Origin: Gammaproteobacteria bacterium | GTDB lineage: Bacteria > Pseudomonadota > Gammaproteobacteria > Poriferisulfidales > GCA-002705445 | DNA: 64,000 bases | Assembly (NCBI GenBank): GCA_045561235.1 | Contig: JBJKYB010000002.1 | Span: 874,942 to 938,941 of the forward strand | Direction: 5' to 3' | Shown: one piece after another, positions 45,599 through 55,982 of the stretch | How the letters are laid out: the number at the start of each line of letters is the position of its first letter | How positions within the stretch are numbered: position 1 is the stretch's first letter | Program-made: the position numbers and the translations under genes | Notes under the pieces: generated by a model | What the model was told of the DNA's origin: nothing | Database searches by the model: none | Seen by the model: the letters and a program-made list of their open reading frames with translations, nothing else

Positions 45599-46525
45599 AT
45601 GCTTAATAATAATAATTATAATAATTTTAAAAAAATTTTATTCTTTACTTTTACCTTTTGTCTTTTTACAAATGCTTTTTCTGGCGCTGATGATGAAATT
45701 ATAATTGCTGCGGAGAAGAAAGCGCTAAATGCTACAAACGGGATATTAAGTACACTAACTTCAGATTTAACCGAAAGCTTAAAAAAATTCGAGAGTGTTA
45801 AGTATTTAGACATTAAAATTGACGTTCAAGAGCATTATAACCCTGCATTCAGTATTACAAATTTAAACAGCTTGTTTGAAAGAGATACCTCTGCATTTTT
45901 TAATCAAAATACCTTAACCCATAATAAAGATGAACAAACTATAAATTTTGGATTAGGATATAGAAAACTTTTGAATGATGATAAATTACTTTTAGGTGCT
46001 AACATTTTCTATGACTATGCTTTTGATGATAACCATAGAAGGTTGGGTTTAGGTGTTGAAGCAATATCAAGTGTATTTGATCTTAGAGGTAATTTATACG
46101 AAGCTGAAAGTGATGTAGTCACTTTAACAGATGGCTCGACGGAAGAAGCTTTAGATGGTTGGGATGCAAGACTTGATTATCATATACCAGTAGGCTTTGA
46201 TTTAAGAGTATTTGGCACATATTTTGATTGGGAAAATAGTGCGAAAACTTATGAAAATAAAGGTGAACAATACGGTTTAGCAGGACAATATGGTTTGATT
46301 AAGTTTGAAGTCGGTTATAGAGACGAAGATAATAGAAAAAAAGATGCTTTTGCAAATTTGAGCTTAGTAATTCCTCTAGGTTCTGTAGCAACATCAAATG
46401 TTGTTCCAAGGGGCATGATGGAATTGGTAAGTGTTAGAGATCAATTATATGAGCCCGTTGAGAGAGAAAATAGAATAAGAGTTGTAAAAGTTTCTGCTGG
46501 TAGTGTGATCGTAAGTGGATTTTAA
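45599..46525 (+). CDS. Outer-membrane beta-barrel protein resembling the inverse-autotransporter (intimin/invasin) beta-domain, but stand-alone (308 aa)
   Basis: Sec signal peptide; motif block LGANIFYDYAFDDNHRRLGLGVEAI...LRGNLYEAES...DGWDARLDYHIPVGF...FGTYFDWENS recalls the IAT beta-domain consensus; C-terminal aromatic (SGF). Confidence 0.5.
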   Translation: MLNNNNYNNFKKILFFTFTFCLFTNAFSGADDEIIIAAEKKALNATNGILSTLTSDLTESLKKFESVKYLDIKIDVQEHYNPAFSITNLNSLFERDTSAFFNQNTLTHNKDEQTINFGLGYRKLLNDDKLLLGANIFYDYAFDDNHRRLGLGVEAISSVFDLRGNLYEAESDVVTLTDGSTEEALDGWDARLDYHIPVGFDLRVFGTYFDWENSAKTYENKGEQYGLAGQYGLIKFEVGYRDEDNRKKDAFANLSLVIPLGSVATSNVVPRGMMELVSVRDQLYEPVERENRIRVVKVSAGSVIVSGF

Positions 46526-47640
46526 TGGGAGATACTATGTGCAAATCTGTAAAATTATTTTTATCATTATTGACTTTATTATTTTTTGTAAGCAACTCTG
46601 TTTATGCAGACACTCTTGGTGACGCGATAGATGCCGAAGGATGTGGAGATAGCGATACCGCATCTTGCTCAGGCGAATGTACCCAAACAAATAATGTTAT
46701 TACGATTGCAACTTCTGGTAATGATGATGGTGGGGTAACAGATGCAGATAGTGGTAATGTGAAAAACTTTTGTAATGAAAAGCCTGATGAATATCGTATT
46801 ACTTTTTATAAAGCGGGGTTATGTAAAATTGACCCTTTTGATTCAACTGCTACATCTAATCCAACTTCGGCTTCAAACTGTTACAATTTTTTTGTAGATG
46901 AAAGTGGCAAAGCGATAACTCTTGCTTATGATGATGATACTAGCTTAATTAGTCAAACTGGTAGCCTAATCTCAGGAAATCTTAACTTTGAATTAGGCAC
47001 GTATAATTTTGCTTACGTAATTGTTGACAATCACCTTGAAATTAAGCATCAACAAACTTTTAGTGAAGCTATGAAAGGGTATCATGTTAATGGGTCTGAT
47101 TATAGCTCAGGCGTCACATGCTGGACAAATGGTATTGTAACAACTTACACAAATGCAACAGGTGCTCAACGTGGCTATAACGCAGCTACCGTAAAATCTT
47201 ATGGTAACGATAGTAGCAGCACCTCCTCATTAGCAATGACATGCGGTGAAACTTCAGATGCTGCTCCAGTTTTTAATACAGAAATAATTGAAAATTTAGC
47301 TGCTGATCCAACGTTTCCCGATGGGAATGAAAACTCAACATTTTCAGCAATATTTGCATCAACCTATCAAACAATCACTGGAACATCAGATAAAGGTGTT
47401 GGAAAATTGTTGCAAGATGACGATTTAACTACAGCAACTAGTCATACAAATGCAGCGAGAATTTTTTATCCTGTTCAACTTGCGAACCCTCTTATTGTTA
47501 CTCCGGATATTAAAACATTTGAAATGTCTTTCGGTATATCTGGCTCTGTAAGTATTGATTTTACAACAGATGGATCTAATAATCTTATAAATTTAAAAGC
47601 TGGCGCTGATCCTTTTACAATGAAATTTAGCGCTGAATAA
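46525..47640 (+). CDS. Secreted acidic Cys/Thr/Ser-rich protein (possible surface/adhesin-like partner); ATG overlaps upstream stop (TAATG); alternative start ATG 46537
   Basis: Own Sec signal (MCKSVKLFLSLLTLLFFVSNSVYA|DT), 9 Cys, T/S/G/D-rich; GC much higher than surroundings. Confidence 0.6.
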   Translation: MGDTMCKSVKLFLSLLTLLFFVSNSVYADTLGDAIDAEGCGDSDTASCSGECTQTNNVITIATSGNDDGGVTDADSGNVKNFCNEKPDEYRITFYKAGLCKIDPFDSTATSNPTSASNCYNFFVDESGKAITLAYDDDTSLISQTGSLISGNLNFELGTYNFAYVIVDNHLEIKHQQTFSEAMKGYHVNGSDYSSGVTCWTNGIVTTYTNATGAQRGYNAATVKSYGNDSSSTSSLAMTCGETSDAAPVFNTEIIENLAADPTFPDGNENSTFSAIFASTYQTITGTSDKGVGKLLQDDDLTTATSHTNAARIFYPVQLANPLIVTPDIKTFEMSFGISGSVSIDFTTDGSNNLINLKAGADPFTMKFSAE

Positions 47641-48396: not shown

Positions 48397-48945
48397 TTAT
48401 ATTTTGCCATCCAATCCCATTTGATAATATTTATGAACTATACTTTCTTGATTTTCTAGCAACCAATCAATACTAGGTTCATTTTTCATTGCTTTTTGAA
48501 TTGCTTGTGCAGTAGCTTTTCTGTGAATATCAAACAAAATTTTATGATCAAGATTATCGTCGTCGATTACTGATGGATTTAACCATACTGAAACTATAAT
48601 ACCTAAATCATTTGCTTTTTCTTTTGGAATATCCCCATTTCTAACAGCATCAAGAACACCGTTCGCAATAGCTCCTTGAACTGTTCCCATTAATATATTG
48701 GTATATTTTGTATCTTTGACGGTAACCTTGCTCACCATCAAAGTTGCAGGCTTAACCATAATATCTGTATTCATAATTGCTAAAACTCTTGAATGACCTT
48801 TAACTTGATCACCAAGAAGTGTCGCAAATGCTGTTCCAACAGGGCCGTCAAGCTCTCCAATCACTACTTCAGGCTCTGCTGCTGTTCCTGGAGGTCCGCC
48901 AGCAACCAAAGATTCAGCAACCCTCATTACAATTCTATCACTCAT
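48397..48945 (-). CDS. Formaldehyde-activating enzyme (Fae) family protein
   Basis: 182 aa collinear with H4MPT-dependent Fae (VAESLVAGG..., VVIGELDGPVGTAF, KPATLMVSKVTV, GAIANGVLDAVRNGDIP, EPS...); GC clearly above local background. Confidence 0.65.
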   Translation of the reverse strand: MSDRIVMRVAESLVAGGPPGTAAEPEVVIGELDGPVGTAFATLLGDQVKGHSRVLAIMNTDIMVKPATLMVSKVTVKDTKYTNILMGTVQGAIANGVLDAVRNGDIPKEKANDLGIIVSVWLNPSVIDDDNLDHKILFDIHRKATAQAIQKAMKNEPSIDWLLENQESIVHKYYQMGLDGKI

Positions 48946-50323: not shown

Positions 50324-50518
50324 AACTAAACAATTATATTCTTATATATATTTAATATGTATTGATTTTTAGCATTAATTCCTTGTAAGAAAGGCAGCAT
50401 TGGTGTACTTTACAGATCTTGATTGTTTTTAAATTTCATAGAATTTAAAATAATAATAAAAACGAATAAATCGTTATCAATCAAAAACTTAAGAATATTT
50501 GGAGAAAATAAAGTATAA

Positions 50519-52330
50519 ATGGCTACTATTCCAGGTTTAGTGCTTTCGCATAATCAAAAGCATCCCGATGGCATTGCCCTAAGATACAAACAATTAGGCA
50601 TATGGAATTCATATAATTGGGCTGATTATTATCGCGAAGTGAACTTAATAGCAAATGCTTTAAAGTCTCTTTCTATTAAAAAAGGCAGTATAATTGCGGT
50701 TTATGGAAACAATGTTCCCAAACTTATTTTTTCTATCGCTGCAATTCAATCTTTAGGCGCTATTGTGGTTCCTATTCATCCGGAATCAACAGGGGAAGAA
50801 TTAGAAAAAATCCTAGCAGGTTCAAAAGCAGAAATTTTAATAGCTGAAGACCAACAACAGGTTGATACATTTTTAGATATAAAGTCTGATTGCGAAATTA
50901 AAAGTCTTATTTATTTAGATGGAAGAGGAATGTCTAAATACTCAAATGACATATTGTTTTCATATGATAATCTTATAGAAAAATCAAATGAATCAAGTAT
51001 AGAAAATGATATAAACTCTATTAGTGAAAATGATATTGCTTTTTATCTTTATGATGAATATGAAGATTCAATTTATAAAGTTTCTCACGCGGCAATAATT
51101 AATAATAGCTCGAAAATCATCACTTTAAATAATTTGACAGAAAAAGACTCTATTGTTTCCTTTCTGCCGTTGTCAATACCAACAAATTTACTATTTACAT
51201 TTGTTACTTCCTTGACAAGCGGAATGTCGTTAAATTTACCTGAAAGTAACCAAACTATAGAAAAAGATTTGCAAGAAATAGGCCCAACAATATTATATGC
51301 ACCTTCTTTTGTATATAAACATATTATTACATCAATAAGTTACAGAATAGAATCTGCAACACAATCTAACTATGATAGATATATGAAACATTATGAAATA
51401 TTAATGGATACTTATAATAAAGAAGTAAGTGGGGAAAATTCAACACTGGATAAAATAAAAAAAATGTGGGTTATGCTTACAACGTTTGCTCCAGCCAAGA
51501 ACGTATTTGGCTTAACAAATATAAAGCATGCCTTTGTAAGTGATGGGGTTCTATCAAAAGTAAACTTCGACTTCTTTCATGCGATAGGTGTTGAGATACA
51601 ACATTCTTTTGGACAAGCTTCATCCTGTGGATGTATTTCCGTCCAACCAGATCATTCTGTTTCTTCAGAAAATGTTGGTTCGGCGATGGCAGGTAATGAA
51701 ATTATGATCAATGACAATTCAGAAGTTTGTTTTAAATCAGACTGCTTAGCAGAACTGTTAAATGGTGAAGCAAGTTCCCAAGATGGGTGGGTGAACTCTG
51801 GTTTCATTGGTAGCCTTGACGATTCAAAAAATATTGTAATTAGTGGAAGAACCGAAGATGTAATTTCCTTAAAATCTGGTAAACAATTTTCACCTGAAAG
51901 TATAGAAAATTTAATTTCTTGTTCACCATTTGTGAAATCTGCAGTAGTTGTCGGAAACAATCAAGAATCGAACTCTGCAATCGTTGTAATAGATCCAAAT
52001 TCAGTAAACTCATGGGCTGATAGAAAAAATATTAGATATACCGGTTATACTGAATTAGCTGGTAAAGACGAAGTTAGAGAGCTAATAAAAGAACATATTT
52101 GTTGTGTAAATGAAACTCTCGACTCAGAGCTTAAAGTAAAAAAGTTTGTTATATTACATAGAACATTTGTAATGTCGCAAGGAGAAGTTTCAAAAACTAT
52201 GGAAGTTATGAGGAAAAATATAGAGGTAAATTTAAAGGATGTTTACCAAGCAATTGATTCTAAAAAAGATAGCTTCGAAGTAAATGATATTGATCAGTTA
52301 TCTTATGAACTTAGTTTTAATAAAATATAA
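50519..52330 (+). CDS. Adenylate-forming (AMP-binding/acyl-CoA synthetase-like) superfamily protein with degenerate core motifs
   Basis: Overall ANL-fold collinearity and length (603 aa), but P-loop TSGTTGxPKG position reads YDEYEDSIYK, YGxTE reads SFGQAS, TGD reads SGF; first gene of Liv-type ABC cluster. Confidence 0.6.
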   Translation: MATIPGLVLSHNQKHPDGIALRYKQLGIWNSYNWADYYREVNLIANALKSLSIKKGSIIAVYGNNVPKLIFSIAAIQSLGAIVVPIHPESTGEELEKILAGSKAEILIAEDQQQVDTFLDIKSDCEIKSLIYLDGRGMSKYSNDILFSYDNLIEKSNESSIENDINSISENDIAFYLYDEYEDSIYKVSHAAIINNSSKIITLNNLTEKDSIVSFLPLSIPTNLLFTFVTSLTSGMSLNLPESNQTIEKDLQEIGPTILYAPSFVYKHIITSISYRIESATQSNYDRYMKHYEILMDTYNKEVSGENSTLDKIKKMWVMLTTFAPAKNVFGLTNIKHAFVSDGVLSKVNFDFFHAIGVEIQHSFGQASSCGCISVQPDHSVSSENVGSAMAGNEIMINDNSEVCFKSDCLAELLNGEASSQDGWVNSGFIGSLDDSKNIVISGRTEDVISLKSGKQFSPESIENLISCSPFVKSAVVVGNNQESNSAIVVIDPNSVNSWADRKNIRYTGYTELAGKDEVRELIKEHICCVNETLDSELKVKKFVILHRTFVMSQGEVSKTMEVMRKNIEVNLKDVYQAIDSKKDSFEVNDIDQLSYELSFNKI

Positions 52331-52354
52331 ATTTTAATTTAAAAAGAGAATAGA

Positions 52355-53122
52355 ATGTCAGATATCTTAAAAGTAGAAAACGTAACACTTCAATTTGGTG
52401 GTGTAAAAGCAATTACTGATATTAGTTTTAATGTTAAGGAAGGTGAGATTTGTGCTGTAATTGGCCCTAATGGAGCCGGAAAAAGCTCAATGTTAAATGT
52501 TATTAATGGTGTATATCTTCCACAAATAGGAACAGTTACTTATGACGGTGTTGAGAGAAGATCTATTAATCCAAGAGATGCTGCAATTGCAGGCATGGCA
52601 AGAACATTCCAAAACATTGCGTTATTCCAAGGTATGACTGTTTTAGAAAATATTATGACAGGTAGGAATTTATTTATGAAATCGTCTTGGTTAGAACAAG
52701 GTTTAAATATCGGTAGAGCTAGACAAGAAGAAAAAGTAAATAGACTTGCAGTTGAAAAGGTAATAAAATTTTTACAAATTGAGTCTATTAGAAAAACTCC
52801 AGTAGCAAAATTACCATACGGTCTTCAAAAAAGAGTTGAGTTAGGAAGAGCATTAGTTGCAGAACCTAAGATTTTATTGCTCGATGAGCCTATGGCGGGA
52901 ATGAACTTAGAAGAAAAAGCGGATATGTCTTGTTTTATTTTGGAGATAAATAAAGAACAAGGAATTACAACTGTTATGATTGAGCATGATATGGGAGTGG
53001 TAATGGATATTTCTGATCATGTGGTAGTATTGGATTATGGAAAAAAAATAGGTGATGGTTCACCAAAAGAAGTTATGGCGAACCAAGATGTTATTGATGC
53101 ATATCTTGGAGTCAGTCACTAA
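52355..53122 (+). CDS. ABC transporter ATP-binding protein, LivG-like
   Basis: Walker A GPNGAGKSS, signature/Walker B LLLDEPMAGMN, H-loop; LivG-like C-terminal extension. Confidence 0.88.
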   Translation: MSDILKVENVTLQFGGVKAITDISFNVKEGEICAVIGPNGAGKSSMLNVINGVYLPQIGTVTYDGVERRSINPRDAAIAGMARTFQNIALFQGMTVLENIMTGRNLFMKSSWLEQGLNIGRARQEEKVNRLAVEKVIKFLQIESIRKTPVAKLPYGLQKRVELGRALVAEPKILLLDEPMAGMNLEEKADMSCFILEINKEQGITTVMIEHDMGVVMDISDHVVVLDYGKKIGDGSPKEVMANQDVIDAYLGVSH

Positions 53123-53137
53123 ATAGGGGTAATAAAA

Positions 53138-54067
53138 ATGGATTGGGTTTATTTGATAGAAGTGTTAGTAGGCGGATTAATGTCAGGAGTAATGTACTCT
53201 CTTGTAGCCATTGGTTTTGTGTTAATTTATAAATCATCAGGCATATTTAATTTCGCCCAAGGAACTATGCTTTTATTCGCCTCTTTAACTTTTGTTAAAA
53301 TGACGGAGAATGGAATAGATTTTTGGACTGCATTATTTATAGCAGCAGGCATAATGGTTATATTTGGTGTTGCAACCGAACGGTATGTAATAAGACCATT
53401 AGCAAACCAGGATCTTCTTGCTTTATTCATGGCAACAGTTGGTTTGGCTACTTTCCAAGAGGGCTTTTCTCAATTCATTTGGGATTCAGACGTTCACGGA
53501 CTGCAAATGAGCAAATTCCTTGATATAGGTTTACTTGACCCAGCGCCAATATTTATGTCAGATCATATTCCCTGGCTGGACATTTTAATTCCAAAATTTG
53601 ATATCTTTGCATCATTAGTTGCTGGATCACTTATTGTAGTTTTAGCATTCTTCTTTCAAAAAACTAAGACAGGGCTATCTTTAAGAGCGGTGTCAGACGA
53701 TCATATGGCTGCAATGGCAGTCGGTATTCCTTTACAAACAGTTTGGGCTGTGGTCTGGGCTGTTACAGGTGTTATTGCATTAGTTGCTGGTTTATTATGG
53801 GCTGAAAGAGTGAGTGTTTCATTTACGTTAATTGAAGCGGTAATGAAAGCATTGCCAGTTATTTTAATTGGCGGATTGACTTCTATTCCTGGTGCTATTA
53901 TTGGTGGATTAGTAATTGGTGTTGGTGAAAAATTAGGTGAAATCTATTTAGCTGATGTATTTGGGGGACAAGGAATAGAATTATGGTTTGCCTACTTTAT
54001 GGCATTAATATTCCTTGTATTTAGACCTCAGGGTATGTTTGGCGAAAAATTAATTGAAAGGGTATAA
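53138..54067 (+). CDS. ABC transporter permease, LivH-like
   Basis: Branched-chain amino acid permease family topology and motifs (NFAQGTMLLF, IPGAIIGG). Confidence 0.85.
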   Translation: MDWVYLIEVLVGGLMSGVMYSLVAIGFVLIYKSSGIFNFAQGTMLLFASLTFVKMTENGIDFWTALFIAAGIMVIFGVATERYVIRPLANQDLLALFMATVGLATFQEGFSQFIWDSDVHGLQMSKFLDIGLLDPAPIFMSDHIPWLDILIPKFDIFASLVAGSLIVVLAFFFQKTKTGLSLRAVSDDHMAAMAVGIPLQTVWAVVWAVTGVIALVAGLLWAERVSVSFTLIEAVMKALPVILIGGLTSIPGAIIGGLVIGVGEKLGEIYLADVFGGQGIELWFAYFMALIFLVFRPQGMFGEKLIERV

Positions 54068-54071
54068 ATAA

Positions 54072-55166
54072 ATGATATATAGAGAAACTGGAAATTTTGT
54101 AACTAACTACTTTAAAGATAGAGAAATTTTTCCAATGAAATTTGATAAAGTTGTAGTAGTGTTAGGATTACTATTTCTTTTTTTATATGTACCAACAACA
54201 TCAGAATATGTTCTAAGTGCCCATGTTATTCCAATTTTGGCTGTAGGGTTAGCAACAGTTGGTCTTAATATATTAACAGGACTAACAGGACAACTTTCAC
54301 TGGGAACTGCTGGATTTATGTGCGTAGGAGCATTTGGTACTTATAATCTTATGTTGAGAATGCCTGAAGAATTAATGTCTTTACCTTTTGCTTTGCTTCT
54401 TTCTGGTATATTTGCAGGATTGGTAGGTATTATTTTTGGTTTACCGGCTATTAGAATTAAAGGTTTTTACTTATTAGTATCTACGTTGGCAGCTCAATAT
54501 TTTGTATGGTGGTTTTTTAATTCGTACGCGTGGTTTTTAAATTACGAATCCTCAGGAGTAGTAGCTATTGCGCCAAAATTTTATGACTATTGGGGTTTAG
54601 GCGATCTGCTAGGTGTAGACATGCAAGGTTACCCAGCAAGGTATCTATTAGCTTTAACTATTTGTATAGGATTGACTTATTTTGCGAAGAACTTATTGAG
54701 AAGTAATACGGGCAGAAACTTTATGTCTGTTCGTGATAGAGATATTGCTGCCAGTGTTATGGGGATTAGCGTTCCAAGAACAAAGCTATTGGCATTCTTT
54801 GTTAGTTGTTTTTACTGTGGTGTTGCTGGCGGTATTTATTCGTTTTTATATATTGGTAATGTTGATTTAATGATTTACGAAATTGATCGTTCTTTCACAA
54901 TACTATTTATGTTAATTATTGGGGGATTGGGGTCTATCTCGGGTTCGTGGTTAGGAGCAATTTTTGTATATGAATTCCCAATTGTATTTACTTGGATAGG
55001 TGATTTTATTTTCCAAGGTGCCTTTAACACAGCTGTTGTAGAAAATGTATCAAATATGGTTTATGGTATATTTATAATTGCATTATTAATTAGGGAACCA
55101 GGTGGATTTGCGGCTTTATGGGGAACTACAAAACAAAAATTAAGAATGTGGCCATACCCACATTAA
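54072..55166 (+). CDS. ABC transporter permease, LivM-like
   Basis: LTGLTGQLSLGTAGFMCVGAFGTY motif typical of LivM permeases. Confidence 0.85.
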   Translation: MIYRETGNFVTNYFKDREIFPMKFDKVVVVLGLLFLFLYVPTTSEYVLSAHVIPILAVGLATVGLNILTGLTGQLSLGTAGFMCVGAFGTYNLMLRMPEELMSLPFALLLSGIFAGLVGIIFGLPAIRIKGFYLLVSTLAAQYFVWWFFNSYAWFLNYESSGVVAIAPKFYDYWGLGDLLGVDMQGYPARYLLALTICIGLTYFAKNLLRSNTGRNFMSVRDRDIAASVMGISVPRTKLLAFFVSCFYCGVAGGIYSFLYIGNVDLMIYEIDRSFTILFMLIIGGLGSISGSWLGAIFVYEFPIVFTWIGDFIFQGAFNTAVVENVSNMVYGIFIIALLIREPGGFAALWGTTKQKLRMWPYPH

Positions 55167-55982
55167 TTGAAAGAGGAAAAAATGTCTGAATCTTTGCTAA
55201 AAGTAAATAACATAGAAGTTGTATATAATCATGTAATTTTAGCATTACGTGGAGTTACACTTGATGTTGAAGAAGGAAAAGTGGTTTCTTTATTAGGTGC
55301 TAACGGCTCTGGAAAAACAACAACATTAAAAGCTTGTTCAAATCTGTTGCACGCCGAGCGGGGAGCAATAACAAAAGGTTCAATAGAGTATCAAGGAAAT
55401 GACATCGCAACATCCGACGCTTATAACCTTGTGAAAGACGGAGTAGTGCAGGTTCTTGAAGGTAGACATTGTTTTGCACACCTGACAGTTGAAGAAAATA
55501 TAATGACTGGCTCTTTCATCAGAGAAAATTCAAAAGAAGCAAAGCAAGATCTTGAGAGAGTTTATGATCATTTTGAAAGAATTAGGATAAGAAAAAAGAG
55601 TTTAGCTGGATTTACTTCTGGTGGTGAGCAGCAAATGATTGCGATGGGTAGAGCTCTAATGTCTAGACCAAAATTAATTTTATTAGACGAGCCCTCAATG
55701 GGTTTAGCTCCTCAGTTAGTAGAGGAAATATTTGCAATAGTAAAAAACTTAAATAAAGAAGGTGTAAGTTTCTTGATAGCAGAGCAGAATGCTATGGTAG
55801 CTCTTAAATATGCAGACGATGGTTATATAATTGAGAATGGAAGAGTAATTCTTAAAGGAAAAGCCCAAGAATTATTAGAAAGACCTGATGTAAAAGAAAT
55901 GTATTTAGGTGTTGGTGCTGAGGGTCAAACAAGTTTTAGGGATATCAAGTATTACCATAGAAGAAAACCATCATTTAGTTAA
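55167..55982 (+). CDS. ABC transporter ATP-binding protein, LivF-like
   Basis: Walker A GANGSGKTT, LSGGEQQM signature, ILLDEPSMGLAP. Confidence 0.88.
   Translation: MKEEKMSESLLKVNNIEVVYNHVILALRGVTLDVEEGKVVSLLGANGSGKTTTLKACSNLLHAERGAITKGSIEYQGNDIATSDAYNLVKDGVVQVLEGRHCFAHLTVEENIMTGSFIRENSKEAKQDLERVYDHFERIRIRKKSLAGFTSGGEQQMIAMGRALMSRPKLILLDEPSMGLAPQLVEEIFAIVKNLNKEGVSFLIAEQNAMVALKYADDGYIIENGRVILKGKAQELLERPDVKEMYLGVGAEGQTSFRDIKYYHRRKPSFS

Follow-up and report, generated by a model that had tools for sequence, protein, structure and literature searches.

Layout of the operon and state of its first gene

The stretch of DNA analysed here (the window) comprises 64 kb of contig JBJKYB010000002.1 from a gammaproteobacterium and has a GC content of about 31%. 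Between positions 50519 and 55982 it carries five genes on the same strand, separated by gaps of 24, 15, 4 and 15 nucleotides (nt). Pfam and NCBIfam assigned the first product to the adenylate-forming ANL superfamily (AMP-binding plus AMP-binding_C_3) and the other four to LivG-like, LivH-like, LivM-like and LivF-like components of an ATP-binding cassette (ABC) importer (Table 1). The Liv-type five-gene operon proposed in a preliminary description of this DNA was borne out by spacing, orientation and domain assignment. Two BPD_transp_2 permeases were present together with LivG and LivF ATPases, in both of which Walker A, signature, Walker B and H-loop were intact when read from the translations, as in the HAAT family (TC 3.A.1.4). 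The start of LivF is most likely the ATG at 55182 rather than the TTG at 55167, because a ribosome-binding site (AGAGGA) precedes the ATG and the LivF proteins of relatives are called with 266 amino acids (aa).

Table 1. Coordinates in the window of the operon genes, the altered ANL motifs and the features of the leader
Feature	Position (nt)	Strand	Remarks
Promoter-like block: TTGTAA, 17-nt spacer, TACTTT	50383..50411	+	conserved upstream of the operon
Two short inverted repeats in the leader	50426..50475	+	conserved in the clade
ANL-fold protein, 603 aa	50519..52330	+	Pfam AMP-binding E 1e-35, AMP-binding_C_3
A3 region, residues 178-187	51050..51079	+	degenerate
A5, residues 363-368	51605..51622	+	degenerate
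A7, residues 427-429	51797..51805	+	degenerate
A10 Lys, replaced by Glu562	52202..52204	+	family alignments
LivG-type ATPase	52355..53122	+	ABC_tran + BCA_ABC_TP_C; NCBIfam LivG E 2.6e-67
LivH-type permease	53138..54067	+	BPD_transp_2 E 9e-26
LivM-type permease	54072..55166	+	BPD_transp_2 E 1.3e-24
LivF-type ATPase, 266 aa from ATG	55182..55982	+	NCBIfam LivF E 2.8e-63

The ANL protein was aligned with PDB 7a9i (coronafacic acid ligase) using HMMER, with 145 full-length representatives of clusters formed at 50% identity, and with the ANL proteins encoded at 80 genome loci. In the alignment with 7a9i, FYLYDEYEDSIYK was placed opposite FYTSGTTGHPKG; YDEYEDSIYK stood opposite TSGTTGHPKG, SFGQAS opposite SYGQTE, SGF opposite TGD and GRTED opposite GREKD. 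The phosphate-binding loop (P-loop) of motif A3, [ST][SG]G[ST][TS]GxPKG, was thus replaced, with a deletion of three to four residues. In A5 (YGxTE) the glutamate, kept in 138 of the 145 representatives (95%), was substituted by Ser368. The aspartate of A7 (TGD), kept in 142 (98%), had given way to Phe in the window and to Tyr, Phe or His across the clade, and Glu562 stood opposite the first lysine of the A10 family motif TPTxKxKR. The glycine of the GGA motif and the Tyr and Thr of A6 were also lost. The preliminary description had reported general degeneracy of the catalytic motifs; the alignments confirmed this for A3, A5, A7 and A10, but the A8 hinge GRxxD was kept as GRTED at residues 443-447.

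Fourteen positions were replaced in the window clade though conserved in canonical and related gammaproteobacterial ANL proteins, among them T179D and G181H (A3), Y364F and E368S (A5), Y414L and T415S (A6), D429Y/F (A7) and K562E (A10). Distant members of the family were fully canonical (TSGTTGPPKG, YGxTE, TGD, DRKKD, TPTxKVKR). All four catalytic positions were gone only in the query and in P0122, the representative of its own clade. The replacement sequences were themselves conserved in the clade (DE[HY]E[DN], SFGQA.SC, NSG[FY] and GEVSKTMEVMRK), and the P-loop was replaced by a conserved acidic loop, [YF]DE[HY]E[DN]x[IL]YK. An intermediate degree of motif decay was seen in the gammaproteobacterial ANL proteins of loci L023-L049 and representatives P0123-P0140. 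In these the P-loop lysine was often Arg or lost (GTSGxPRG, SGVSGNPLA) and the A4 His and A8 Lys were gone, but no such loss affected the A5 Glu, A7 Asp or A10 Lys. The motif states suggest a gradual relaxation of ANL catalysis across the clade.

The AlphaFold (AF2) model of the protein showed a confident ANL fold (pLDDT 89.4, pTM 0.86). Foldseek searches of the PDB with this model gave ANL enzymes as top matches, with an E value of 3e-31 and TM scores of 0.7-0.8 at only 13-18% identity. Model, Foldseek and Pfam agreed on the architecture of the superfamily, a large N-domain followed by a small C-domain, and the two domains were equally conserved (0.78 and 0.79). Ratios of nonsynonymous to synonymous substitution rates (dN/dS) were determined by the method of Nei and Gojobori for window genes against six relatives. 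The ANL gene gave 0.06-0.10, rising to 0.19 in the most divergent comparison. The four Liv genes gave 0.007-0.03 (LivG about 0.01-0.02), and the genes of isocitrate lyase and isocitrate dehydrogenase 0.02-0.03. LivH was 98-100% identical in amino acid sequence across the clade at dS 0.4-2.2, with a dN/dS of about 0.01. More than 12 species-level lineages with genomes of about 1.1 Mb still encoded a full-length ANL protein of 598-604 aa, at identities as low as 51%. The gene is under purifying selection and is retained, not decaying, because the fold is intact and dN/dS is 0.06-0.10. Together with the loss of catalytic residues these results support the earlier view of a non-catalytic ANL protein: lacking every residue needed for adenylation and thioester formation, it is predicted to be a pseudoenzyme, not the product of a pseudogene.

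Related six-gene operons and the gene of the binding protein

To describe gene order in the 80 loci, letters were used for ANL (A), LivG, LivH, LivM and LivF (G, H, M, F) and the substrate-binding protein, SBP (S). The order AGHMSF occurred in many metagenome-assembled genomes (MAGs) of Gammaproteobacteria and in Methylophilaceae. All of the approximately 20 loci of the window clade (51-100% ANL identity) had the order AGHMF, the SBP being missing exactly between LivM and LivF. In the window the order was likewise A-G-H-M-F instead of A-G-H-M-S-F, with all remaining components orthologous. In L007, a 1.64-Mb genome with 31% ANL identity, the operon read ANL-LivG-LivH-LivM-SBP-LivF, and the upstream neighbourhood guaB-guaA-tadA was common to L007 and the window. 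In L007, L024 and other loci the gene that separates LivM from LivF encoded a Peripla_BP_6 SBP of 448 aa, and the SBP from the operons of relatives matched the structural-genomics entry PDB 4RU0 with an E value of 1.9e-115. The same order of six genes is found in the gene table of Pseudomonas protegens (HH203_RS12875-12900; PMC13541209).

Flanking synteny was kept at 52% ANL identity and still at about 35-36%. Because the order of the window corresponds to the six-gene order with the SBP removed, the other components are orthologous and the flanking synteny is common with L007, the window locus is a derived member of this group, and the cluster is regarded as a vertically inherited, streamlined derivative of the widespread ANL-LivG-LivH-LivM-SBP-LivF operon. 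The pairing of an inactive ligase homolog with an SBP-less importer had been called unusual; an ANL gene next to Liv genes is not unusual as such, since the window cluster derives from a six-gene operon that is common and conserved. An elevated GC content of the cluster, also noted previously, amounted to a weak difference (0.336 against 0.314 for the window, 1.3 standard deviations). A foreign origin or GC island was rejected on account of conserved synteny and of a GC content at third codon positions of 0.20-0.26, equal to that of housekeeping genes. According to the ANL tree, operons without SBP occurred in at least two or three other groups, and whether the SBP was absent did not depend on how far the ANL motifs were preserved. 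The ANL gene stood between LivG and LivH in other phyla, and in relatives the ANL and LivG genes often overlapped by 4 nt.

In Methylophilaceae (L074-L080, L084 and L087-L089; Methylophilus, Methylobacillus and Methylovorus) the complete AGHMSF operon was headed by a shorter ANL homolog of 381-421 aa. These truncated proteins spanned window residues 3 to about 361-380, with LivG following directly (e.g. L074:9989-11143), and consisted of the N-domain only (about 385 aa) with a degenerate P-loop (e.g. YRLSAQYQLEYRE). In this cultivable family ANL catalysis was apparently lost independently. Several non-catalytic motifs were common to the truncated proteins and the window protein, namely R22, K24, LGIW26-29, W34 and DQQQVD111-116, and further Y132, R136-G137, Y141, PES241-243, T246, D250, E253 and GP255-256, so that RGM..Y and PES..T are among the shared motifs.

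The absence of an SBP gene from the cluster and its flanks, as described before, was confirmed. A search of the whole window in six frames with the SBP profile gave a best E value of 3, Pfam scans of the other large open reading frames yielded no Peripla_BP_6 or operon-type SBP, and no remnant of the gene was detected in six frames, either in the LivM-LivF gap or in the rest of the window. In no clade member was an SBP present at a distance of 10 kb or less from the operon. The SBP encoded in the operon of L030 was used as query for a search. A protein 92% identical to it (P0280) mapped to the 2,045,000-bp chromosome of L028, near 212 kb, and one with 89% identity (P0301) to the 1,831,068-bp chromosome of L029, near 175 kb; both chromosomes carry an SBP-less operon. 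These were single genes between proS-DUF4156 and clpB, hundreds of kb or more away from the operon.

The invariant SBP motif GWGVMNPVA, back-translated for low GC, served to scan metagenomes. Marine contigs with 28-34% GC encoded an orthologous SBP of 450 aa, belonging to a cluster of 1,108 members, directly after proS. On a contig of 1,098,683 bp the order was BamC, DapA, redoxin, LysR, ProS, SBP, YfiH, RluD, BamD, NadE, which is syntenic with the locus of the relatives. The SBP of this contig is MDG2171540.1, and LivH of MAG JAQWPG01 (L011), which has an AGHMF operon and an ANL protein 80% identical to that of the window, is MDG2172030.1; the two accessions are 490 apart in one block. Accession blocks of further MAGs were examined for such a pairing of SBP and operon, and the JAQWPG01 pair was the single match. 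Orphan and in-operon SBPs were intermingled in the SBP tree, and next to them stood the low-GC group, 78% and 70% identical. Of the permease and ATPase positions invariant in SBP-containing lineages, SBP-less lineages kept 89-100%.

The Peripla_BP_6 SBP is absent from the window, but related genomes with SBP-less operons encode it near proS, and so does a MAG of the window clade, as judged by its accession block. The previous reading of an importer without SBP is not supported, because an orthologous SBP is encoded elsewhere in these chromosomes and in the MAG. In the window lineage the gene most likely moved to another place in the genome and was not lost.

A leader of roughly 190 nt was conserved ahead of the orphan SBP genes (L115:9812-10003; also L100, L103-L105, L112 and L113), the genome being AT-rich. 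This leader contained GC-rich stems with a few compensatory changes (e.g. CTCAGG/CCTGAG to CTCGGG/CCCGAG), and a hairpin conserved without exception immediately preceded a strong ribosome-binding site. It had no Rfam match above noise. It is a candidate cis-regulatory RNA that may report on the ligand.

Upstream region and neighbouring genes

The promoter-like block upstream of the operon, CTTGTaaGAAAGGCAGCATTGGTGTACTTTACA, was almost invariant in most clade members and scored under the consensus threshold of the promoter scan; it may act as a promoter. The first of the two inverted repeats in the leader, TTTTTAAAT/ATTTAAAAT at 50426-50451, was conserved in the clade, as was the second, AACGA/TCGTT at 50461-50475, which in L013 showed a symmetric change (AGCGA...TCGCT). 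These repeats are a candidate operator or hairpin. No riboswitch or known RNA was found upstream of the operon in Rfam at E <= 1.

The operon is flanked upstream by the genes of an SLT transglycosylase and tadA, and downstream by a convergent RraA gene followed by those of isocitrate lyase and isocitrate dehydrogenase. The identical set of proteins recurred on contigs from marine metagenomes and MAGs, which reached 1.06 Mb, and the related genomes are of about 1.1 Mb. In two contigs of the window clade LivM was distributed over two open reading frames (L002:7550-8639 and L010:13544-14637), which may be due to an assembly or polishing error or to genuine inactivation in some populations. At 48397-48945 on the minus strand of the window, which stems from a marine gammaproteobacterial genome of about 1.1 Mb, a gene for a formaldehyde-activating enzyme (Fae) adjoins a methyltransferase gene; the former hints at handling of one-carbon compounds or formaldehyde. 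Positions 45599-47640 encode an inverse-autotransporter beta-domain protein of 308 aa, then a 371-aa protein without Pfam match, and this gene pair is kept in relatives L005 and L090.

Proposed function and comparison with known systems

By analogy with Liv-type transporter relatives, the ancestral operon would have imported an organic acid and activated it to the CoA thioester. This is proposed because the ligands of Liv-type COG0683 SBPs of Rhodopseudomonas palustris are not branched-chain amino acids but fatty, dicarboxylic and aromatic acids, and because its Liv-type transporters adjoin CoA-ligase genes (the pimA-adjacent RPA3723-3725 and the couP region), with CoA activation after uptake (PMC3223731). 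In the window lineage, an uncultured marine gammaproteobacterium, LivGHMF, intact and very strongly conserved, would still form a working ATP-driven importer. The SBP, whose gene in relatives stands alone behind proS and has a long leader of its own, most likely still serves LivGHMF, as its orthology suggests. The ANL protein would be a non-catalytic cytoplasmic partner that docks on the LivG and LivF ATPases and modulates transport or holds the imported ligand, a role possibly inherited from a catalytic ancestor that received its substrate straight from the transporter. Because the truncated Methylophilaceae protein shares non-catalytic motifs with that of the window, a conserved non-catalytic role, most simply contact with the ATPases, is indicated. 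On balance we lean towards this combination of a working importer, a relocated SBP and a docking ANL partner.

Several points weigh against this account. The ANL gene evolved 3-5 times faster than the Liv genes, and LivM was broken in 2 of the approximately 20 clade loci (L002 and L010), possibly through assembly errors. When the regions upstream of the operon and of the SBP gene were compared, no obvious common motif was found. The link of the SBP to the window clade rests on the accession block, GC content, genome size and synteny. Fusions of ANL with LivG, which would be evidence for contact, were not present among the few long homologs checked.

A more general and more tentative proposal is that, in one subfamily of Liv-type (HAAT) transporters, the ANL-fold protein belongs to the transport machinery as a cytoplasmic subunit for docking, gating or regulation, its ligase chemistry being dispensable. 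Catalysis would then have been lost at least twice independently, in the marine clade by replacement of motifs and in Methylophilaceae by reduction to the N-domain, with gene and non-catalytic motifs kept all the same.

Rather unlikely, but to be taken seriously, is a new function of the ANL protein that is not physically tied to the transporter, such as a cytoplasmic ligand binder or buffer, a sensor of the imported compound, or an enzyme of different chemistry using the acidic loop. The clade-conserved replacement motifs, the equal conservation of both domains and the purifying selection on the gene would all fit such a function. The position as first gene of a transporter operon is nevertheless strictly conserved, a geometry suited to translational coupling with LivG is frequent in relatives, the Methylophilaceae form consists of the N-domain only, and no new catalytic motif was recognisable.

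Transport without an SBP, or with the ANL protein as replacement receptor as suggested in the preliminary description, is very improbable. The missing SBP in the window and within 10 kb of the operon in clade members, and the recurrence of SBP-less operons in at least three groups, could be taken in its favour, but orthologous SBPs are encoded elsewhere in the same chromosomes or MAG, and the permeases show no relaxation at positions conserved in SBP-containing lineages. As to the receptor, the ANL protein aligned from residue 1-3 with its family relatives, which are known as cytoplasmic enzymes, and no hydrophobic N-terminal leader was seen on reading the sequence (no signal-peptide predictor was used). 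Decay of the ANL gene or of the whole operon would account for the lost motifs, the faster evolution of ANL relative to its neighbours and the split LivM, but with full-length reading frames maintained over so many lineages with small genomes, the low dN/dS and the confident fold prediction it deserves little credence. An active adenylate-forming ligase with a non-canonical active site, to which the retained A8 hinge (GR..D) and two-domain architecture might point, is just as doubtful, as P-loop, A5 Glu, A7 Asp, A10 Lys, A6 Tyr/Thr and GGA-motif Gly were lost together, a combination found in none of the 143 other representatives outside the query's clade.

If the favoured account of a docking ANL partner is true, a transporter subunit or regulator of this type would be a new kind of accessory protein for ABC importers, and a clear case of a pseudoenzyme would be added to the ANL superfamily. 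The long maintenance of a dead ANL protein in abundant streamlined ocean bacteria, together with a truncated form in cultivable Methylophilaceae, provides a handle on a role other than acyl-CoA synthesis. Before an ABC operon of a small genome is called unusual for want of an SBP, a relocated SBP gene should be looked for. The ANL-Liv operon is common in Proteobacteria, and the literature search found no experimental characterisation of it. Literature on ANL pseudoenzymes with ABC transporters, on SBP-independent importers and on PDB 4RU0 contained nothing relevant besides PMC13541209 and PMC3223731.

The concept of vectorial acylation (FadL/FadD, FATP) links transport with an adenylate-forming enzyme at the cytoplasmic face of the membrane. 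The window system differs in having a primary ABC importer and a dead ANL protein, whose role therefore cannot be to trap the substrate by CoA esterification. EIIA-Glc on MalK and PII on UrtE and NrtC are cytoplasmic regulators that bind the ATPases of ABC importers, and UrtE belongs to the HAAT family. They offer a possible analogy for a non-catalytic cytoplasmic modulator of an importer, but the window ANL protein has another fold and is encoded inside the operon.

The ligase beside the R. palustris transporters is active, belongs to another ANL subfamily and is not encoded by the first gene of the transporter operon. With the six-gene cluster represented by P. protegens and by the SBP of 4RU0, the window shares gene order and orthologous proteins; it differs by the missing SBP in the operon and by an ANL protein without catalytic motifs, those of the aligned canonical ANL proteins being intact. 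In P. protegens (HH203_RS12860-12900) the operon lies beside genes for an SfnB-family sulfur-acquisition oxidoreductase, an acyl-CoA dehydrogenase and an LLM monooxygenase (PMC13541209). These neighbours hint at an organosulfur compound or a long-chain acid as substrate of this transporter family.

The LIV-I system of E. coli (LivJ/LivK-LivHMGF; HAAT, TC 3.A.1.4) differs in that the window operon is headed by an ANL-fold gene, and the window Liv proteins score far under the NCBIfam equivalog cut-offs. The substrate is probably not a branched-chain amino acid. LIV-I is alike in its two BPD_transp_2 permeases, its LivG and LivF ATPases, the BCA_ABC_TP_C tail on LivG and, judged by the proS-linked gene of relatives, an SBP of the Peripla_BP_6/COG0683 type. 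In E. coli, too, one SBP gene, livJ, is unlinked from the liv operon.

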